Assembly (NCBI GenBank): GCA_963718855.1
Contig: CAVRAA010000006.1
Span: 214,988-278,987 of the forward strand
Reading direction: 5' to 3'
Length of the DNA: 64,000 nt
Origin: an uncultured Nitrospiraceae bacterium
GTDB taxonomy: Bacteria > Nitrospirota > Thermodesulfovibrionia > Thermodesulfovibrionales > SM23-35
This document shows, piece after piece, positions 12,055 to 21,365 of the stretch (position 1 is the stretch's first letter; each line of letters opens with the position of its first letter). A model generated the notes under the pieces. It was given only the letters and a program-made list of their open reading frames with translations, was not told the DNA's origin and did not search any database. Both the position numbers and the translations under genes were made by a program.

Positions 12055-12555
12055 ATGGAACAGTTGCGTAAGAGATTCAGATGTACTATGCGCTATGCCC
12101 TCTTTTTTTTAATCCTCTCGTTTATACTTCTTTCAGGAATGCAATCCGGTTTTGCTCTGGCAATAAGTACCCCATCTTATGTCGGATCAGATGCATGCAG
12201 TGGCTGTCACGAACAGGAATATAACGGCTTCGTGAAGTATGCAAAGAAAAGTAAATCCTTCAACAGCATCGAAAGAGTAAAAAAGGGTTTGACCGAAGAA
12301 GAAATAAAAGGCTGCTATGTCTGTCATACCACGGGATTCGGTAAACCCGGAGGATTTATCAGTATCGAAAAGACCCCCCATCTCAAGAACGCAGGGTGTG
12401 AAGTATGTCATGGCCCCGGCGGGGTTCATATAAAAACAACAAACCGGCAGGACATTAAGAGGAAGATGACATTGAAAGACTGTGAGGTATGCCACACGTC
12501 TGAGCGGGTCCGTGCATTCAGATATAAGCCAATGATTCACGGAGGAGCGCATTAG
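12055..12555 (+). CDS. Periplasmic tetraheme cytochrome c
   Basis: Signal peptide and four CxxCH motifs (CSGCH, CYVCH, CEVCH, CEVCH). The start may be the internal Met at 12088. Confidence 0.85.
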   Translation: MEQLRKRFRCTMRYALFFLILSFILLSGMQSGFALAISTPSYVGSDACSGCHEQEYNGFVKYAKKSKSFNSIERVKKGLTEEEIKGCYVCHTTGFGKPGGFISIEKTPHLKNAGCEVCHGPGGVHIKTTNRQDIKRKMTLKDCEVCHTSERVRAFRYKPMIHGGAH

Positions 12556-12593
12556 TCACGCTGAGCAGTTGAAAATCAGGGAATAAGAGAAAA

Positions 12594-15293
12594 ATGTTTG
12601 GTGTAATCAGAAAGAGACTGGGCTACAAGATCATGTTTGCCATGCTGGCCATCATTTTGCTGGTGCTGCTTGCTGAAATCTATATGCGCATCTATTTCGG
12701 CACAAAAGACAGGCTCGAAATTGCAGCAACGTTAAGTGCCGAACTGGCGGACTCTGTATATGCCGGAATCAAGCATCCTATGGAAATTGGCGACAGTGAA
12801 GCGATTAAGCGAGAGTTATCGGACATAAGAGACAAGATGAAGGATATCGAGGTATTTATCTGTGATTTCAACAAGGAGGTTGTCTATTCCACACATACGG
12901 ATAAAATAAAAGCAAATCTTCAGGATTTAATTAATAACAAGACCATTTCGTATAACCTGACAGAGAGCCTGAAAACAGGGGTCGAACCCCACATCGACCA
13001 GCGTAAGCCCTTTGAGGACGTTGTCTCAGGCAGAAGACAAATTGTTGTCATGCGGCCTATCCTGAATGAAAAGGAATGCTATCACTGCCATGGGTCATCG
13101 AGAAAGGTCCTCGGCGGGATTGTGGTGAGACTTGATGCAGAGCGGACCTATGCACAGGTTGTCGCGCAGCGGAACCGCACGATAATGATAGTTATATTCC
13201 TCATCCCGATCGCAATCGTCCTTGTCTATCTTATGGTGAACAGGTTAGTCAGGCATCCTGTGGAGAGCCTTGCAGACAAGGCGAATAAATTTGCAGAGGG
13301 AGACATGGCTGTGAAGGTGGACGTGAATACTGACGATGAAATCGGCATTCTTGGACGAACCTTCAACTATATGGTTGACAGTGTTTCATCGTTCAGCAAA
13401 AAACTGGAAGAGGAAGTAAAGAGAAAAACTGCTTTGCTGAATGAAAGAACGCGACTGATGACTTTACTGGAAAGGGCGAATAAGGACCTCCGGGAGATGG
13501 ATAAAATGAAGTCAACATTTCTTGCAAACATGTCTCATGAGCTTCGTACTCCCATGAATGCCATTATCGGCTATACCGATCTTTTGATAGACGGGGTGGA
13601 TGGTCCGATCAACGAAGAGCAGGACAAGAGCCTTAACAAGGTCGCAACGAATGCGAGGCATCTCCTCCAGTTGATCAATGACGTCCTCGATATTTCAAAG
13701 ATTGAAGCCGGCAAGATGAAGATCAATCCTAAAGAACTTGACCTGAGATGGTTGATTGAATCTGCAACGCCTACATTTGAACCCCAAATAAAGATGAAAG
13801 GGATTTCCCTTACGGTCAATATCCCTGATGAGTTGCCCCATGTCTATGGTGATGAAGCCAGGCTGAAAGAGGTTCTGATCAATCTGTTATCCAATGCGAT
13901 TAAGTTCACCCATGAGGGTGGAATAGTCGTATCTGCAAGGCTTTCGGAAAGGGGAGTAAAACCCGGTGAAGCGCCACTGTTTATGGAAATTTGCGTTGCG
14001 GATACAGGGATAGGAATAAACGAAGAAGACGTCGGAAAGATCTTTGATAAATTTGTGCAGGCAGACCTCACAACAGTACGTCAGTATGAAGGTACAGGGC
14101 TTGGCCTGAGCATTGCGAGGGGACTGATATCGCTCCATAAGGGCATGATCTGGGTGACAAGCACATTAGGAAAAGGAAGCACGTTCTGCTTTACCCTTCC
14201 TTTGAAGAAAGAGATGCTTGAAACATCTGCTGAACCGGTGGTTGAAACAAGAATGGCAGAATCCCTTGCCGATTATTTTGGAAAGCCGGTAGAGGATTTT
14301 CTGAAGGAACCGGAATACTCAGGGAAGCCGATACGGTGCTGGGAGTATGTCCGGTGCGGACAACCGAGTTGCCCGGCATACGGGAGCAAGGAAGGAAGAT
14401 GCTGGATGATTATGGGAACGCATTGTGCGGGAATGAAGATTGCTGCGTATCCGGAGAAGGCAGATTTTTGCAAGGGGTGCGACCTCATGAAAAGCATTCT
14501 GCAAAAAACTGATGAAGAGTATCGAACAGAGCCTGTGCTTACCGTAAAGGCTGACAAAAAAATCATTATGGCGATTGACGACAATCCAGAGGCAATTGAT
14601 ATTATCTGCAAATATCTTGGTGATGAGTATGCGGTGGTCGGGCTCCTTGGCGGCGAGGATGCAGTCGAAAAGGCAAAGCAGCTAAAACCGATGGCAATTA
14701 CCCTTGATATTATGATGCCGAGGAAGGATGGATGGCAGGTCTTGCGGGAGCTGAAACATGATCCCGATACGCAGGATATTCCGGTAATTATCATGTCTAT
14801 CGTCGACGACAAGAGGATGGGATTCAGCCTCGGTGCAGCTGAGTATATTGTAAAGCCTGTTGAAAAGGAAATTTTATTAAGAAAGCTGAAGACGCTCGAG
14901 AGGATGACAAAGATCAAGAGAATCCTCATAGTCGATGATGATCCGGGCACGGTGCGATTGATAGGCAATGTGCTTGAAGAGGCTGAATACCAGGTAACGA
15001 CTGCGTTTAACAGTGAAGATGCGGTAAAGTCCATTGAGAATTTCAGGCCGGATCTCATCGTTCTCAATCTTACGATGCCGAAGACCGGCTTTGATGTCAT
15101 TGAATATATTAAGGCTGCACAGGGGGCTAAAGACATCCCATTAATTGTACTCACCCAGAAGGATCTTTCTGAAAAAGAGGCCGGCGAACTGAACGAAAGA
15201 ATACAGGGCATATTGAACAAGGTTGTTCTGACAAAAGAAGACCTCTTGCAGGAATTGAAGAATACCATCACAAGGATGAGCGGCGCTCCATGA
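12594..15293 (+). CDS. Hybrid sensor histidine kinase: periplasmic CxxCH domain-HAMP-HisKA-HATPase-7-Cys module-REC-REC
   Basis: TM / periplasmic segment with CYHCH (13077-13091) / TM / HAMP. H-box MSHELRTPMN, G-boxes, Cys-rich module at 14337-14480, and two receiver domains (DIMMPRKDG, NLTMPKTG). Confidence 0.9.
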   Translation: MFGVIRKRLGYKIMFAMLAIILLVLLAEIYMRIYFGTKDRLEIAATLSAELADSVYAGIKHPMEIGDSEAIKRELSDIRDKMKDIEVFICDFNKEVVYSTHTDKIKANLQDLINNKTISYNLTESLKTGVEPHIDQRKPFEDVVSGRRQIVVMRPILNEKECYHCHGSSRKVLGGIVVRLDAERTYAQVVAQRNRTIMIVIFLIPIAIVLVYLMVNRLVRHPVESLADKANKFAEGDMAVKVDVNTDDEIGILGRTFNYMVDSVSSFSKKLEEEVKRKTALLNERTRLMTLLERANKDLREMDKMKSTFLANMSHELRTPMNAIIGYTDLLIDGVDGPINEEQDKSLNKVATNARHLLQLINDVLDISKIEAGKMKINPKELDLRWLIESATPTFEPQIKMKGISLTVNIPDELPHVYGDEARLKEVLINLLSNAIKFTHEGGIVVSARLSERGVKPGEAPLFMEICVADTGIGINEEDVGKIFDKFVQADLTTVRQYEGTGLGLSIARGLISLHKGMIWVTSTLGKGSTFCFTLPLKKEMLETSAEPVVETRMAESLADYFGKPVEDFLKEPEYSGKPIRCWEYVRCGQPSCPAYGSKEGRCWMIMGTHCAGMKIAAYPEKADFCKGCDLMKSILQKTDEEYRTEPVLTVKADKKIIMAIDDNPEAIDIICKYLGDEYAVVGLLGGEDAVEKAKQLKPMAITLDIMMPRKDGWQVLRELKHDPDTQDIPVIIMSIVDDKRMGFSLGAAEYIVKPVEKEILLRKLKTLERMTKIKRILIVDDDPGTVRLIGNVLEEAEYQVTTAFNSEDAVKSIENFRPDLIVLNLTMPKTGFDVIEYIKAAQGAKDIPLIVLTQKDLSEKEAGELNERIQGILNKVVLTKEDLLQELKNTITRMSGAP

Positions 15294-15300
15294 ACAACGT

Positions 15301-16935
15301 ATGACATTTCTCTTGACCCTCCTTTTTATTATTCTCCTTCCTTTTGACGCGTGGGCTTTCGTCTCTCATGAATATCCGGCGATTTATGTCCATATGCTTT
15401 CGCTGATTTTCTGCTTTGTTGCTCTGCTTGTTGTTTTGTGGGCTTTTATCCGTCGGGGCTTATATAAAGAGAGGAGATGGAAATACCTTTTTCTCTCCGC
15501 GATATTTCATGCCCTATGGAATGCAGACGTGATCATCGGTCGCATTGCTGAGGCCTTGTGGATAGAGAAGTCACAGATAACAGGCGCTGCAGAGGGCTGG
15601 CAGTATTTTGCGCGGCACATAACAATTGAAGGGGCGGAATATTTCTATTACATAGGAAGGCTCGATTTTATACTGCTGAATGCAGCGATGCTGTTTTTCT
15701 ACATTTGGCTGAGAGAGCATCTTCAAAAAGAGCCCGAAGAGCGCGGCATATCAACAGCGGCTTTTTTGCCGTTGTTTCCGATCTTATTTACAGAAATAGC
15801 AGGCAATATACTTTTTATTGTGCTCTCTGCGCTATGCTTCGTTACCAGCATTAAGCTCTATAAAAGAGAGCGGGCAAATGTGCTTTGGAGATATATGGTC
15901 GGGCTTTCTTCAACGTATTTTATGTTTTCCATTTCAAGGTCCTTTGGTCATATTTTTAAAAATATCCTTCTGCCGACAGGGAACCAGGGTATTTGGGATA
16001 CTCTTTATCTCGATGCGATCGGCGGAAGCCTCAACACCGTCATTCGCTTCTTAGTGGCAACACTGACCCTCTTCTTTGTATGGATCTATGAGACCTATCT
16101 CGGCATATCTGAAGACAAAAGAAAATTGCAGGTAAGCGTGGAGGAAAGGACCGGCCTCATTGAGCAACTGGAAAGAGACAAAACAGAACTTCAGGAGCTT
16201 GATAGAATGAAATCAGCCTTCATGGCAAACATGTCTCATGAACTTCGGACTCCCATGAATACCATTATCGGTTATAGTGAGATGTTGATCGACAGGGTAG
16301 ATGGTCCTCTCAACAAGGAACAGGAAGGGAGTCTCAAAAAGGTAAAAGAGAGCGCCAGGCACCTTCTCAAATTGATCGACGACGTCCTGAATATATCAAG
16401 GATAGAATCGGCAAAAATGCACCTGGAGGTAAAAGAACTGAACATGAAACATATTGTGGAATCGGTCATTCCTGCATTTGAGCCCCTGATTACACAAAAA
16501 GGGTTGACCCTGTCGCTCAAGGTAAGTGAACAATTGCCAACTGTCTATGGTGACGCAGAAAAAATTAAACAGATTTTGACAAACCTGCTGTCGAACGCAG
16601 TAAAATTCACCCATAAGGGCGGGATAACCATCACTGCTTCGGTTTCCGATACAGGTGTTAACCCCGGAGAAACGCCGCTTTTTCTGGAGGTATGCATCTC
16701 AGATACAGGGATAGGGATAAAAGAAGACGATCTTGGCAGGATTTTCGACAAGTTTGTACAGGTGGATTTCAGTTTAGTAAGATCGTATGAGGGTACAGGA
16801 CTTGGACTGAGTATTGCCAATGGACTTGTGAAATTGCATAATGGAACTATCCGGGTCGCCAGCACGTATGGAGAGGGAAGCACATTCTGTTTCACCCTGC
16901 CATTAAAAAAAGAAATCTTTGAGAAAACAACGTAA
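15301..16935 (+). CDS. Membrane sensor histidine kinase (multi-TM N-terminus), transmitter paralog of the upstream kinase
   Basis: At least 6 predicted TM helices, then HisKA/HATPase. By-eye alignment to 12594..15293 is roughly 55-60% identical over about 245 aa (MSHELRTPMN..., FCFTLPLKKE). Confidence 0.85.
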   Translation: MTFLLTLLFIILLPFDAWAFVSHEYPAIYVHMLSLIFCFVALLVVLWAFIRRGLYKERRWKYLFLSAIFHALWNADVIIGRIAEALWIEKSQITGAAEGWQYFARHITIEGAEYFYYIGRLDFILLNAAMLFFYIWLREHLQKEPEERGISTAAFLPLFPILFTEIAGNILFIVLSALCFVTSIKLYKRERANVLWRYMVGLSSTYFMFSISRSFGHIFKNILLPTGNQGIWDTLYLDAIGGSLNTVIRFLVATLTLFFVWIYETYLGISEDKRKLQVSVEERTGLIEQLERDKTELQELDRMKSAFMANMSHELRTPMNTIIGYSEMLIDRVDGPLNKEQEGSLKKVKESARHLLKLIDDVLNISRIESAKMHLEVKELNMKHIVESVIPAFEPLITQKGLTLSLKVSEQLPTVYGDAEKIKQILTNLLSNAVKFTHKGGITITASVSDTGVNPGETPLFLEVCISDTGIGIKEDDLGRIFDKFVQVDFSLVRSYEGTGLGLSIANGLVKLHNGTIRVASTYGEGSTFCFTLPLKKEIFEKTT

Positions 16936-16992
16936 CTATTTATAATAGATGATGCAAAAATAGTATGCGAACAGCAAAGACCAGGAGATGAC

Positions 16993-17409
16993 ATGCCAAG
17001 GAAACTATTGATCGTTGAAGACAATCAGGACAACCGTGAACTTGCAATCAAGGTCCTGAAAAATAAAGGCTATGAGATTATTGAGGCTGTCGACGGTGAG
17101 GAGGCCATAGAAAAGGCGATTTCGGAAAGACCCGACCTGATACTGCTCGATATCTCGCTCCCGAAATTGGATGGGTATGAAGTAGCCAAACGACTGAAGA
17201 GCATGGAAGAATTCCAGGAAATTCCGATCGTAGCCTTTACCGCACATGCCATGAAAGGGGACAGGGAAAAGGTAATAGTGGTAGGGTTCGAGGGATACAT
17301 CTCAAAGCCTATTAACGTGCGTGAATTTCCGGACCAAATAAGGGCATATCTCAGGGGAAAAAGGGAGAGCGTGTTAGGTGGAGAAGAAAAGCAAGATATT
17401 GATCGTTGA
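16993..17409 (+). CDS. Single-domain response regulator (CheY-like receiver)
   Basis: KLLIVEDN...LLDISLPKLDG...AHAMKGD...KP receiver motifs. Confidence 0.85.
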   Translation: MPRKLLIVEDNQDNRELAIKVLKNKGYEIIEAVDGEEAIEKAISERPDLILLDISLPKLDGYEVAKRLKSMEEFQEIPIVAFTAHAMKGDREKVIVVGFEGYISKPINVREFPDQIRAYLRGKRESVLGGEEKQDIDR

Positions 17410-18449
17410 TGATGCAGAAGATACCGTAGAACTCCTGAAGAAGAGATTTCGCGCCGAAGGGTATGAGACATCGGAGGCCTATAACGGGGAGGAGGCACTG
17501 CAGAGGGTGCCTGAATACGAGCCTGATTTAATCGTCCTTGATGTCATGATGCCGAAGATAGACGGCTATGAAGTCTGCCAGAGGCTTAAGGCAGATGAAA
17601 AGACAAAATACATCCCCATTCTGATGTTAACTGCAAAAGGCGAGGTCGAGCATAAGATCAAAGGGCTTGATATCGGCGCCGATGATTACATGGGAAAACC
17701 CTTTCGATTACAAAGAACTATCAGCCAGAATCCGCTCCCTGCTTTCCATAAAGGCTACGCATGAAAAAAAGGTGGTAGAGGAAAAAACCGGCGCGCTTGA
17801 ACAGATGATTGACGAAGTCGCCCACGAGATACGAAATCCCCTGACTTCCATTGGAGGATTTGCACGGAAGGTCTTCAACAAACTGCCGGAAGATGATCCG
17901 AATAGAAAATATATGCAGATGATCATTGAAGATGTTGCCGTACTTGAAAATATGATAAAGCAGCTTATCGAACTGAAATCCATGGAGATATCACAGAAGG
18001 AATCCGCGAATATAAATGAAATCATCAGCGACGCGCTAAAGGTTTTTGAGAAAGAGACCTCAGAGAAAAACATTCAGGTGTCCACGGATTTTCTGGATAA
18101 CCCGCCTTTGCTTTTCATAGACAAAAAGCTTATGAAGAGAGCACTTTGCAACATGATCAAAAATGCCATCGAGGCAATGGAGGCCACTGATTTAAAAGAA
18201 CTTGTGCTCAGGACTGTCCTGAGCGGAGATCATATTGACATTACGATGGTTGATACCGGAAAAGGTATTGAAAAGGATAAAATCAGGAATATCTTTGACC
18301 CGATGGTCTCTTCCAAGATGTTTAGTCCCGGCTTAGGTCTTACCTTTGCATTGAAAATAGTTCAATATCATGACGGCACCATTTCAGTCGAGAGCGAACC
18401 CGGCAAGGGCACAATTTTTACCATCAGATTGCCAGTCGGAAAACCTTGA
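17378..18449 (+). CDS. Receiver-HisKA-HATPase hybrid kinase, frame interrupted at about 17694-17706 as assembled
   Basis: ORF 17378..17764 reads ...GADDYMGKPF and then nonsense. ORF 17667..18449 continues ...PFDYKELSARIRSLL, then VAHEIRNPLTSIGG (H-box) and the HATPase. The switch lies in an AAAACCCTTTC run. Confidence 0.75.
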
Positions 18450-18458
18450 CGGAATGCT

Positions 18459-19195
18459 TTATTTTACAGTTTTCAGCGTCCTGATCCGCGCGATCTCTTC
18501 CTGGTAGCCGTAGATATGGGCGCCTGCGCTGTAGGCATACATTGGGCCGTTTCTCAGTGCTGACTCGCCTGCGACGTACTGTTTTAGAAGTTCTATCCCG
18601 CCGAGATTGGTGGGAAATCCTGCCCAGAGGTCCCATGACCGGAAATAAGCGCTTACGGTAAGGAAAAGATCATCGCCGGAGGGAATGACCTTGAAATCCA
18701 GAATTCTCAGGCATGGTGGGTCAATCTTGCCGTCTTTTCCATAGCAGACATCAAGGTCTTCAGGGGTGGCGATTTCGATCACCGCCTGATTGGTCAATGG
18801 AGTCTCCCTCAGCATATCAATAACACGTTCAAGCTGAGTGCCTCCCTTCGGCATGCTGTGTTGTATCCTGCTCGCATAGGTATATGTTTCATTTTCGGCA
18901 AGCTCAGGGTTCATGAGGTAGTGCGCGAAATAATCTTCGATATACTCCATGGTTGTCGGAGAGGGTATTCCTAACCCCGGCGGAATATCGGGACCAAATC
19001 GTAATAGGGATGTTCGATAAATACCGCGATACCGGGATATTGGAGGCGATATTGTTCGTTTTCGAAAGAGCCTTTCTGAATTTTTTGGGAATATGTTTTA
19101 TCAAACAGATTGTATATGAGCTGAAACCAGGCATCGGAAATAGTCTTGGCCGACAGACAGAACGGGAGCATGTGTTCCTCCTTTTTTCGAATCAT
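18459..19195 (-). CDS. Thymidylate synthase family protein (archaeal-type ThyA-like), frame interrupted near 18988-18996
   Basis: C-terminal part has DPPCLRILDF (catalytic Cys context) and YFRSWDLWAGFPTNLGG (compare ThyA QRSxDxxLGxPFN). The N-terminal 74 aa are in another frame (ORF 18971..19195). Confidence 0.65.
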
Positions 19196-19307
19196 AGTTT
19201 ATCATTTCAATGTGCTGCATGAGAAGAGGATAAAATTTGTGCTGGAGGTAGACAACTGACGTTCCAGGGGATAAACTTTATATATAGAAACAACGAGAGT
19301 CTATACT

Positions 19308-19433
19308 ATTAACCCGGCAATTATAGTTGTCATCCTGAACGGAGTGAAGGATCTCGTAACAGCATGAAAAGGCGAGATTCTTCGCATTGCTCAGAATGAC
19401 AGCATTGATCTGTTTAGTTGCTGGGTTAATAAT
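19308..19433 (+). repeat. MITE-like element, variant core, with ATTAACCCGGCAA / TTGCTGGGTTAAT terminal inverted repeats
   Basis: The termini are related to the repeat family at 33607 and 45508. Long internal hairpin: GTCATCCTGAACGGAGTGAAGGATCTCG ... CGAGATTCTTCGCATTGCTCAGAATGAC. Confidence 0.55.
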
Positions 19434-19455
19434 GCTCTCCCTGGTAATTAAATAA

Positions 19456-21365
19456 ATGACGAAGAAAACATCACACCAAGAAAAGAAAAAAACAAGCTGC
19501 GCGGAAGTGTTCCAGTGTAAGGAGACTTCCTGCCCCGCATATGAATCCGCAAATCATGCATGCTGGCTGATTTCGGGGACGCATTGTCATCAGCAGATTC
19601 AGGGCAAATTTCTGGACAAGATGGGATGTGCATTGACTGCACATTCTTTAATGAAAACGTAGACACCGACTCAATCAAAAAAACACTTAAGATTGTCAAT
19701 ACACAACTCAAGCAGTTCAGGCAGATGGTGGGAGAGAGGGACAGGGAACTGGAAACAATCGGCATGGAATTGGCAATCGGCCTTTCAGAGTCGTTTGAGG
19801 CCCTCAAAAAGATAGCTTCAGGAGACCCCCTTGTGAGGATACCCGTAGCCTCGAAGATAGAGTTGATAGAGAAATTAAAACAACTGATTAATCTTACCGC
19901 CGAGGAATTTGGGGAGTTGGTTGACTTGTCTCATGAGTTTGCAATTGGGATAGCGGAACAATTTGATGTATTGCACAGAGTTTCACTGGGTGATCGGACT
20001 GCCAGGGTTTCAGGAACATCTTCTGTAGAGCTTCTGGAAGCTCTCAGGAATATTTCCAATGCAATGATAGAGAGTGTAGACAGAGAGATCACAGAACGCA
20101 AAAAAATTGAAAAGGAGTTACAGGAGAGCGAGGAAAAATTCAGGACAATCAGTGACGCAGCGAGAGATGCCATAGTAATGATTGACGATGAAGGAAATGC
20201 TTCATTCTGGAACCAGGGCGCAGAAAGAATATTCGGCTATACCGCACAGGAGATTGCAGGGAAAGAACTACATTCGGTTATTGTTCCTTCCAAATACCGG
20301 TCTCTTTCACAGGAAGGTTTCAGTAAATTCAAATTCACAGGTCAGGGCCCGGTTCTCGGCAAGACATTGGAACTGACAGCGTTACGGAAAGACGGAACAG
20401 AATTTCCGGTATCGTTGCCTGTTTCCGCAGTAAAACTGCAGGACAAATGGCATGCGATTGGAATAGTACGGGATATCACCGAACGAAAGAAAGCAGAACA
20501 GGTCATACGGGAGAGTGAAAGGAAATTCAGGGATTTGTTTGAAAATACCACGGATCTGATTCAGATTATTACACCCGACGGACGCTTTCTCCTGGTGAAT
20601 CCTTCATGGATGGTTACCCTCGGCTATTTTGACGACGACATTGGGCATATATCTTTGTGGGACATCATCCATCCGGAAAGTATGCCGCACTGCAAAGAGA
20701 TATTTCAGCAGGTACTCAGCGGCAAAAGTGTACAGAATGTAGAAACTGTCTTGGTTGCAAAAGATGGCAGACCTGTTGTTTTAGAAGGCAATATATCCTG
20801 TTTTTTCAAAGGCGACACACTTGAGTATATACGATGTATTTTTCATGATATTACAGAGCGCAAACGGATGGAAGAAGAGTTGCTGACCCTGTCGCTAAGA
20901 GATGGATTGACATCCCTTTACAACCGCAGGGGTATTGTTACCCTTGCTGAACAGCAGTTAAAGATAGCTGACCGCATGAAAAAAGAAATGCTGATGATTT
21001 ATATTGATCTGGACAAAATGAAGCATATTAATGATACATTTGGCCATCAGGAAGGCGACAGGGCATTAATTGACACAGCGCATATTCTGGAGAACACGTT
21101 TCGCAGTTCGGACATTATTGCACGCCTTGGCGGAGACGAGTTTGCGATACTGGCACTGGAAACCGGTGAGATGTATTCCGAAACGCTGGTAAACCGGCTA
21201 AAGGCAAATGTGGAGACCCACAACGACAAATCAGGCCGCAGTTACACTCTTTCTTTAAGTGTGGGCGTTACTCATTATGATCCTGATGCGCCTTGTTCCA
21301 TAGAAGAACTATTATCTCGTGCAGACGCGCTGATGTACGAGCAGAAAAAAAGAAGAAAACCGTAG
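19456..21365 (+). CDS. 7-Cys module-PAS-PAS-GGDEF diguanylate cyclase, frame interrupted near 19615-19625
   Basis: ORF 19456..19662 encodes the Cys module up to ...GKFLDKMG. ORF 19560..21365 continues ...GMCIDC, then two PAS domains and RLGGDEFAIL (GGDEF). Confidence 0.75.

Follow-up and report, generated by a model that had tools for sequence, protein, structure and literature searches.

Small Cys-ligated centers that pass cytoplasmic oxygen, nitric oxide, or redox input to kinases or transcription factors are found in the [4Fe-4S] PAS domain of NreB, in FNR, and in WhiB-like proteins, which are iron-sulfur (Fe-S) cluster inputs with four Cys. The RsrA/ZAS anti-sigma factors and Hsp33 are zinc-thiolate redox switches, and PHD and RING fingers form a C4HC3 cross-brace. 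Closest to the module described here is the NCBIfam family NF045718 (two_CW_domain), an 80-position domain model without assigned function and with a curated cutoff of 35 bits. This family is catalogued in NCBIfam and unstudied; no relevant paper on the two-CW domain was found in the literature searched, and a heliorhodopsin preprint mentioning seven cysteines was unrelated. We analyzed a stretch of 64,000 nucleotides from an uncultured Nitrospiraceae bacterium (GenBank contig CAVRAA010000006.1, positions 214,988 to 278,987; hereafter, the window), in which a module with seven Cys at fixed spacing occurs in a hybrid sensor histidine kinase and again, split by a frame break, in a diguanylate cyclase. 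Judged by their sequences, both copies are homologous short-loop variants of the two-CW domain and not canonical members. New here are the relation between the short-loop and canonical forms, a His that is specific to one subfamily, a clade locked to one operon (type A), the selection profile along the kinase, and the exact lesion in the cyclase copy.

A sequence-only reading of the window had placed the seven-Cys module between the kinase core and the receivers of the hybrid kinase, and both translation and Pfam placement agreed with this. The protein consists, in order, of a transmembrane (TM) segment, a periplasmic Mcp40H-20-like sensor, a second TM segment, HAMP, HisKA, HATPase, a connector, the two-CW module, a variable linker, a receiver (REC1), and a pseudo-receiver (REC2). 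Pfam matches were obtained for PF21563 (residues 60 to 178, 28.4 bits), HAMP (215 to 264), HisKA (305 to 373), and HATPase_c (419 to 538), with two receiver matches past residue 650. The gene and its parts are as follows.

12594..15293, plus strand: hybrid sensor histidine kinase of 899 residues (open reading frame); 316 orthologues of equal architecture
13077..13091, plus strand: heme-c attachment motif C-Y-H-C-H of the periplasmic sensor, residues 162 to 166; C[YHF]HCH in 110/110 orthologues
13848..14207, plus strand: HATPase_c catalytic domain, residues 419 to 538 (Pfam PF02518, 94.6 bits)
14208..14324, plus strand: semiconserved connector from HATPase to module, residues 539 to 577; mean column entropy, 0.73 bits
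14337..14480, plus strand: two-CW module, short-loop type A, 48 residues (582 to 629); NF045718, 30.1 bits
14493..14549, plus strand: hypervariable linker from module to REC1, residues 634 to 652; mean entropy, 2.09 bits in 110 orthologues
14559..14903, plus strand: REC1, receiver with phospho-acceptor Asp705; Pfam Response_reg in two stretches; D705 in 110/110 orthologues
14922..15257, plus strand: REC2, pseudo-receiver, residues 777 to 888 (Pfam match); Asn825 (15066-15068) replaces the acceptor Asp

The module between HATPase_c and the two receivers (nucleotides 14337 to 14480, plus strand) translates as CWEYVRCGQPSCPAYGSKEGRCWMIMGTHCAGMKIAAYPEKADFCKGC and follows the pattern C-x5-C-x4-CPAY-x6-CW-x5-HC-x14-C-x2-C, i.e., seven Cys plus a His. 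The periplasmic domain of the same kinase matches the heme-c PAS-like sensors of Geobacter chemoreceptors (PF21563, Mcp40H-20_sensor) and carries one CxxCH in 110/110 orthologues. The PF21563-type sensor is a separate domain in another compartment, the two-CW module being a further element on the cytoplasmic side; the match shows that the kinase already owns a predicted redox-type sensor apart from the module. The acceptor position of REC2 holds Asn instead of the phospho-acceptor Asp in 109 of the 110 orthologues, so that REC2 is taken as a conserved pseudo-receiver.

A second copy had also been reported at 19498-19640 in the diguanylate cyclase. It is present, split by a one-base gap, and its first dipeptide is C-A rather than C-W.

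19456..19662, plus strand: 5' open reading frame of the split PAS-PAS-GGDEF gene, encoding Cys 1 to 5 of an N-terminal, type B two-CW module (19498-19623)
19621-19625, plus strand: one-base deletion splitting the cyclase module (AAGAT-GGGATG, beside a GGG run)
19626..21365, plus strand: remainder of the cyclase gene, with M-C-I-D-C, a helical region of about 170 residues, two PAS domains, and GGDEF

In frame 1, positions 19498 to 19623 translate as CAEVFQCKETSCPAYESANHACWLISGTHCHQQIQGKFLDKM, after which the open reading frame at 19456..19662 loses sense, and the last two Cys (M-C-I-D-C, 19626-19640) lie in the frame of the open reading frame at 19560..21365. A DNA alignment with two paralogues from the same genome and one relative showed that exactly one base is missing at AAGAT-GGGATG, and in protein alignments an intact homologue of 643 residues (P0131) aligned with both halves across the junction. 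With one base restored, the Cys spacing is that of the kinase copy, as the sequence-only reading had stated.

NF045718 was the only NCBIfam or Pfam family to match the module, bearing out the two-CW name suggested by the sequence-only reading (kinase copy, 30.1 bits, E = 4.5e-7; cyclase fragment, 21.9 bits, E = 1.7e-4), though both window copies fell below the 35-bit cutoff, with scores of 28.2 and 21.1 in the genome-wide search. Two further copies, which bring the total for the genome to four, lie on contigs C13 and C9; they are the N-terminal domains of soluble PAS-HisKA_3 kinases, have the same short loops, and score 38.2 and 37.1 bits. Canonical members, identified by searching 301 Nitrospirota genomes, are open frames of about 100 to 140 residues that score 100 to 123 bits over all 80 positions; a single genome has as many as 15 matches. 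In a canonical example, CWEVKKCGREPGGVNVKELGVCPAATEDRLDGVHEGKNAGRACWVVAGTFCKGEVQGFFAKKYKDCEKC, the seven Cys recur along with two extra loops, 10 and 11 residues long. An alignment of the short and canonical forms contained gaps in the two loops only, with the seven Cys, the second Trp, G-T, and a Lys in register, and this, together with the above-cutoff paralogues in the same genome, is the ground on which homology is argued. The canonical loops are 14/20 residues long (C2 to C3 and C3 to C4), compared with 4/9 in the window copies (C2-x4-C3, C3-x9-C4), in which 55 to 56 residues cover model positions 2 to 78; the window copies thus lack the canonical loop lengths. Among the best small-protein matches, 155 domain instances were counted, 138 of which have loops of 14/20/14. 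The loop lengths seen include 14/20, 14/10, 14/9, 13/10, 5/10, and 4/9, and with these intermediates the window copies are taken as homologous variants at the short end of the series.

Canonical members share with the window copies the order of the Cys and the spacings C1-x5-C2, C4-x7-C5, C5-x14-C6, and C6-x2-C7, as well as Trp after C1 and C4, C3-P-A, G-T before C5, and a Lys four residues before C6, and both forms occur in Nitrospirota and Desulfobacterota. The kinase copy keeps both Cys-Trp dipeptides (CWEY, CWMI), and the cyclase copy keeps one of the two (CAEV, CWLI). Canonical members differ in being mostly stand-alone proteins of about 100 residues or tandem proteins of about 186 residues with G-T-[FL]-C, whereas the window copies carry G-T-H-C and are embedded in large signaling proteins. 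At 48 residues, the short-loop form is the smallest version of the domain, and it escapes the only existing database model, because of which its hosts are annotated without the module; public records name them just "response regulator," "PAS domain S-box protein," or "hypothetical."

The conservation data refute the reading of the module as a chance Cys-rich linker or an artifact of frame choice, which we consider to have a negligible probability and to which only the subthreshold NCBIfam scores lend anything. In a six-frame translation of the 2.72-Mb genome, 1.6e-4 occurrences of the strict seven-Cys pattern are expected by chance; three intact copies and one split copy were observed, always in signaling proteins. 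A check of Cys spacing among homologues had been proposed with the sequence-only reading, and the spacing proved invariant: in each of the 120 kinase orthologues listed, the module is 48 residues long and retains the His and every one of the seven Cys. A short-form profile built from 21 modules (threshold, E <= 1e-3) matched 1,375 clusters at 50% identity, and the exact spacing was found in 137 of the 150 best cluster representatives. In a set of 419 distinct domain instances covering all forms, conservation is at least 98% for each Cys, 96% for the Trp after C1, 99% for the Trp after C4, and 99% each for the Thr two residues before C5 and the Lys four residues before C6. The His before C5 is subfamily specific and is replaced elsewhere by F, L, Y, Q, M, R, or K, leaving the seven Cys as the only candidate ligands. 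An entropy profile (mean column entropy, 110 near-full-length kinase orthologues) gave 0.27 bits for the module core, the lowest of the kinase segments measured, followed by HisKA (0.28), HATPase (0.48), REC1 (0.54), REC2 (0.69), the 39-residue connector (0.73), and the 19 residues after the module (2.09). The module is as conserved as the phospho-acceptor domain in these orthologues.

The kinase copy belongs to a group, here termed type A, with the signature CWEY-x-RCGQPSCPAYGS...RCW...GTHC-G-K-A-YPEK-DFCKGC. Type A forms a single clade (support, 100/97) in a tree of 103 modules; deeper branches of this tree, which is built on 48 columns only, are unreliable. Type A modules always follow the HATPase of a membrane kinase with a periplasmic PF21563-type sensor. 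Two receivers follow the module in most orthologues, and the receiver-less orthologues (L042, L045 to L047, L051, and L055) end 15 to 30 residues past it. The position after the HATPase had been called unusual for a sensor module. It is indeed uncommon in a family that is mostly N terminal, but it is not peculiar to this gene, as the architecture is fixed in more than 300 orthologues from two phyla. The connector contains invariant residues at regular intervals, and its second half likewise precedes a type A module in the 102-residue protein P0178.

The type A clade is always found within an operon encoding a tetraheme cytochrome c, the heme-c sensor kinase, and a CheY-like protein. Of the 51 related loci in which the kinase was found, 37 have a protein of 157 to 207 residues with four CxxCH motifs directly 5' of it, and most of the remaining loci have no upstream open reading frame in the stretch covered; one CxxCH near residue 160 is present in the kinase of all 48 loci covering its N-terminal part. 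A CheY-like receiver or a module-less multi-TM paralogous kinase lies 3' of the kinase in related loci. Positions 12055 to 17409 of the window show the same arrangement. The genes directly 5' and 3' of the kinase are as follows.

12055..12555, plus strand: small periplasmic tetraheme cytochrome c with four CxxCH motifs; open reading frame 39 nucleotides 5' of the kinase
15301-16935: multi-TM paralogous kinase, the gene after the kinase; closely similar HisKA-HATPase core, ending right after the HATPase

This paralogue carries neither connector nor module. The same paralogue, of 526 to 578 residues and with the N terminus ...NAWGYVPHEY, was observed 3' of the kinase in 16 of the 51 loci. Within the type A clade, modules from Nitrospirota are intermixed with records from Desulfobacterales, Desulfobulbaceae, and Syntrophobacteraceae, and the window's own module pairs with one from Syntrophobacteraceae in the module tree. 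The intermixing suggests lateral transfer of the whole cytochrome-kinase operon; alternatively, it may be caused by misbinned contigs.

The cyclase copy and the two own-genome paralogues represent a second group, type B, in which the module occupies residues 4 to 38 of soluble proteins and is followed by a conserved helical stretch of about 170 residues, PAS, and then an output domain (HisKA, HisKA_3, HisKA_2, GGDEF, or HD-GYP). No membrane-sensor or HAMP domain was found by Pfam in proteins with the N-terminal form. The census of domain architectures called for by the sequence-only reading was carried out and returned fusions to kinases (HisKA, HisKA_3, or HisKA_2), GGDEF, HD-GYP, methyl-accepting chemotaxis protein (MCP) signaling, CheW, GAF, PAS, HAMP, and, by eye, a helix-turn-helix (HTH) domain; some relatives lie in chemoreceptors, beside CheW, GAF, and HAMP segments. 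Every fusion partner recognized by Pfam was a signaling domain. The HTH fusion (L103:500-1000, minus strand, genome G315) has an N-terminal XRE-like HTH and a C-terminal short-loop two-CW domain with 5/10 loops; a selenocysteine variant considered in G315 was rejected, the in-frame TGA being the stop codon of the HTH-two-CW gene. Two frames of 638 and 771 residues (L090 and L091, from genomes G236 and G256) are chemoreceptor-like, with an N-terminal membrane anchor and a full-length canonical match, and their N-terminal parts contain H-x3-W ... C-G-F-G-K-W-Y motifs that recall, by resemblance only, chemoreceptor zinc-binding (CZB) domains. Thirteen partial matches in a WD40/STAND protein (P0253) were put down to the profile and dismissed as a false positive.

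The two-CW domain is common, being present in about half of the sampled Nitrospirota genomes (151 of 301 matched NF045718, 127 of them above the cutoff), in 44% of the sampled Desulfobacterota-side genomes (67 of 151 genomes from the phylum of a Desulfobacterota-type locus, combined short and long profile), and in Asgard archaea. Whole Nitrospirota families had no matches (0/50, 0/28, and 0/24). Among small proteins, 6,909 clusters matched, including Chloroflexi and Polyangia records; the domain occurs in thousands of protein clusters and is attached to most classes of signaling output. Asgard proteins of about 186 residues (P0390 to P0419; Thorarchaeota and Hodarchaeota) have two tandem canonical domains, carry the NCBI name "two-CW domain-containing protein," and are without the loop-2 His of bacterial canonical members.

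On balance, we lean toward a reading in which the window copies are compact two-CW members whose seven Cys hold one or two metal centers and which act as an input or regulatory module of signaling proteins. Its parts differ in strength. Metal binding is quite probable, judging from the conservation pattern: the spacing of the seven invariant Cys is fixed, and invariant Trp, Thr, and Lys lie beside them, which argues for a bound metal instead of disulfides. A sensing role is given a modest preference over a purely structural one, and an input domain is indicated by the independent evolution of the module, by partners that are exclusively signaling domains where Pfam recognized them (plus the HTH identified by eye), and by the free paralogues. 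Between Fe-S and Zn the choice is about even. Seven ligands would suit a 4+3 split, with an Fe-S cubane and a three-Cys site; they would also suit two Zn ions sharing or lacking one ligand.

In the cyclase and the two kinase paralogues, the N-terminal module would take the place from which a TM sensor would otherwise feed the helices, the PAS domain, and the output. In the hybrid kinase, it is tethered to the C terminus of the ATP-binding domain by the connector and followed by a free, variable linker before the receivers. A semiconserved connector, a hypervariable linker, and receiver-less orthologues that retain the module link the module to the catalytic core rather than to the receivers, and this tie is the basis on which we propose a modulation of the ATP-binding domain or of phosphotransfer. 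A change in the state of the metal center (oxidation, loss, or ligand binding) might alter the fold or self-association of the module, which in turn might change the reach of the ATP-binding domain to the phospho-acceptor helix or the passage of phosphate to REC1. In this way, the periplasmic heme-c signal and a cytoplasmic redox or metal signal would be integrated by one kinase.

Several observations weigh against this reading. The metal, cofactor, and signal are predictions for all two-CW members, and the spacing of the module matches no known Fe-S motif. Seven ligands are odd for two tetrahedral Zn sites, and the His that might complete a C4HC3 set is not conserved outside the subfamily. 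Known kinase sensors do not sit after the ATP-binding domain, and the path of transmission is conjecture. AlphaFold2, run as the sequence-only reading had advised, gave predicted local distance difference test (pLDDT) values of 48 (21-sequence alignment) and 62 (101 sequences, short and long mixed), a confidence too low for Cys clustering, a fold, Cys geometry, or a docking surface to be read from the models. Foldseek returned 0 matches against the PDB. No stand-alone two-CW protein was found in this genome by family-model and pattern searches. Lastly, a tie of the domain to strict anaerobes was not obtained across the Nitrospirota families with COX1 (PF00115) as a proxy: in the family richest in two-CW domains (58/64 genomes), 62/64 genomes have COX1-family genes, and a two-CW-free family (0/50) is mostly without them.

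A purely structural zinc knot, cross-brace or ribbon-like, which would serve as a rigid spacer, dimerization, or docking element without sensing, is possible, though we find it doubtful. The module is small and Cys rich, with little secondary structure predicted in the low-confidence AlphaFold2 models, is accommodated at many positions, even within other domains, and in the kinase occupies a position after the catalytic domain that suits docking. Moreover, the order of ligands in this subfamily, C-C-C-C-H-C-C-C, equals that of PHD fingers and recalls two-Zn cross-brace fingers. The likeness does not extend further. The first pairs are C-x5-C and C-x4-C, so that the N-terminal half has no C-x2-C knuckles; the His adjoins a Cys rather than forming H-x2-C; and across the family its position is taken by other residues (F, L, Y, Q, M, R, or K), so that two Zn would have seven ligands between them. 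Pfam gave no match for the module at E <= 0.1, whether to PHD/RING fingers or to any other zinc finger, nor for canonical two-CW proteins at E <= 1, and eukaryotic zf-CW (PF07496) was matched neither by the module (E <= 0.1) nor by the canonical proteins (E <= 1). Exclusively signaling partners among those recognized by Pfam and many stand-alone paralogues are also more typical of input domains than of such a knot. A docking site without sensing, which would organize the phosphorelay by binding the downstream CheY-like receiver, the multi-TM kinase, or free two-CW proteins, appears improbable. Operon partners are conserved, type A has invariant surface residues of its own beyond the family core (GQPS, G-x-K, and YPEK-x-DF), and many other genomes carry numerous free two-CW proteins; on the other hand, the searches of this genome yielded no free two-CW protein, and the N-terminal type is paired with many unrelated outputs outside this operon.

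Slightly less probable still is a metal-free thiol/disulfide switch, with free thiols when reduced and disulfides under oxidative stress. Many Cys in cytoplasmic signaling proteins of lineages that, judged by their names, mostly avoid oxygen would accord with it, but seven invariant Cys at fixed spacing are far above what is found in known thiol switches, the odd number leaves one Cys unpaired, and the invariant Trp, Thr, and Lys beside the Cys resemble a shell around a bound center. A redox mechanism resembling that of RsrA/ZAS and Hsp33, in which metal-bound thiolates become oxidized and the conformation changes as a result, would fit two-CW. The Fe-S inputs of NreB, FNR, and WhiB-like proteins have other spacings and folds, and no sequence or profile similarity to them was found; an Fe-S center in two-CW is only putative. 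A ferredoxin-type [4Fe-4S] site finds no support either, since the CxxCxxCxxxCP motif is absent and there was no Pfam Fer4 match. A search of PDB sequences returned noise only (e.g., urokinase, E about 0.5 to 1), and a PDB profile search gave no match and no solved relative. The cofactor and signal had been described by the sequence-only reading as uncharacterized, and the searches of the literature, PDB sequences, PDB profiles, and folds, which found nothing, agree with it.

One further version of the metal-center reading joins three claims, namely, that two-CW is a new class of Fe-S redox or gas sensors, that the Cys are split 4+3, and that the kinase is a two-compartment comparator; taken jointly, these are unlikely. 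The arrangement would comprise, for example, a cubane and a second center with one open coordination site. If true, two-CW would serve all classes of prokaryotic signaling output as a portable cytoplasmic input, and the kinase would weigh a heme-c signal fed by the tetraheme cytochrome against cytoplasmic redox before phosphorylating REC1. For the compact metal-center module that we favor more generally, the kinase offers a clean experimental system, with a conserved operon, receiver-less orthologues that have the module, a module-less paralogue, and a defined phosphorelay readout. Knowing the bound cofactor would give many orphan signaling proteins an input, in sulfate reducers, in magnetotactic and subsurface bacteria, and in Asgard archaea.

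The frame break in the cyclase gene is one of three within 2 kb (window 17690-19626) and the one that was checked; two further one-base breaks were listed in the sequence-only reading, in a REC-kinase (17690-17710) and in a ThyA-like gene (18459-19195). This density of breaks, with that of the cyclase beside a G run, looks like a local assembly error, the alternative being a real lesion that makes the cyclase gene a pseudogene. Close orthologues of the cyclase were searched for judging the frameshift, and the best DNA identity was 69%. A protein from an unrelated metagenome (P0206) that resembles an orthologue of the own-genome C9 paralogue also loses frame (GKFLEKLSCALTAKRL), within one to two codons of the cyclase break and just 5' of the ATG-TGC at the sixth Cys. 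The explanation may be biological, may lie in a hot spot of sequencing error common to both, or may be chance. The helical region that follows the N-terminal modules has no Pfam family. A reading of this region as HAMP was weak and was set aside (21 bits against a cutoff of 25 in two paralogues, with no match in the window cyclase). The region of about 170 residues in the window cyclase (19641-20150) recurs without a module elsewhere in the same genome, at C13:444571-444878.

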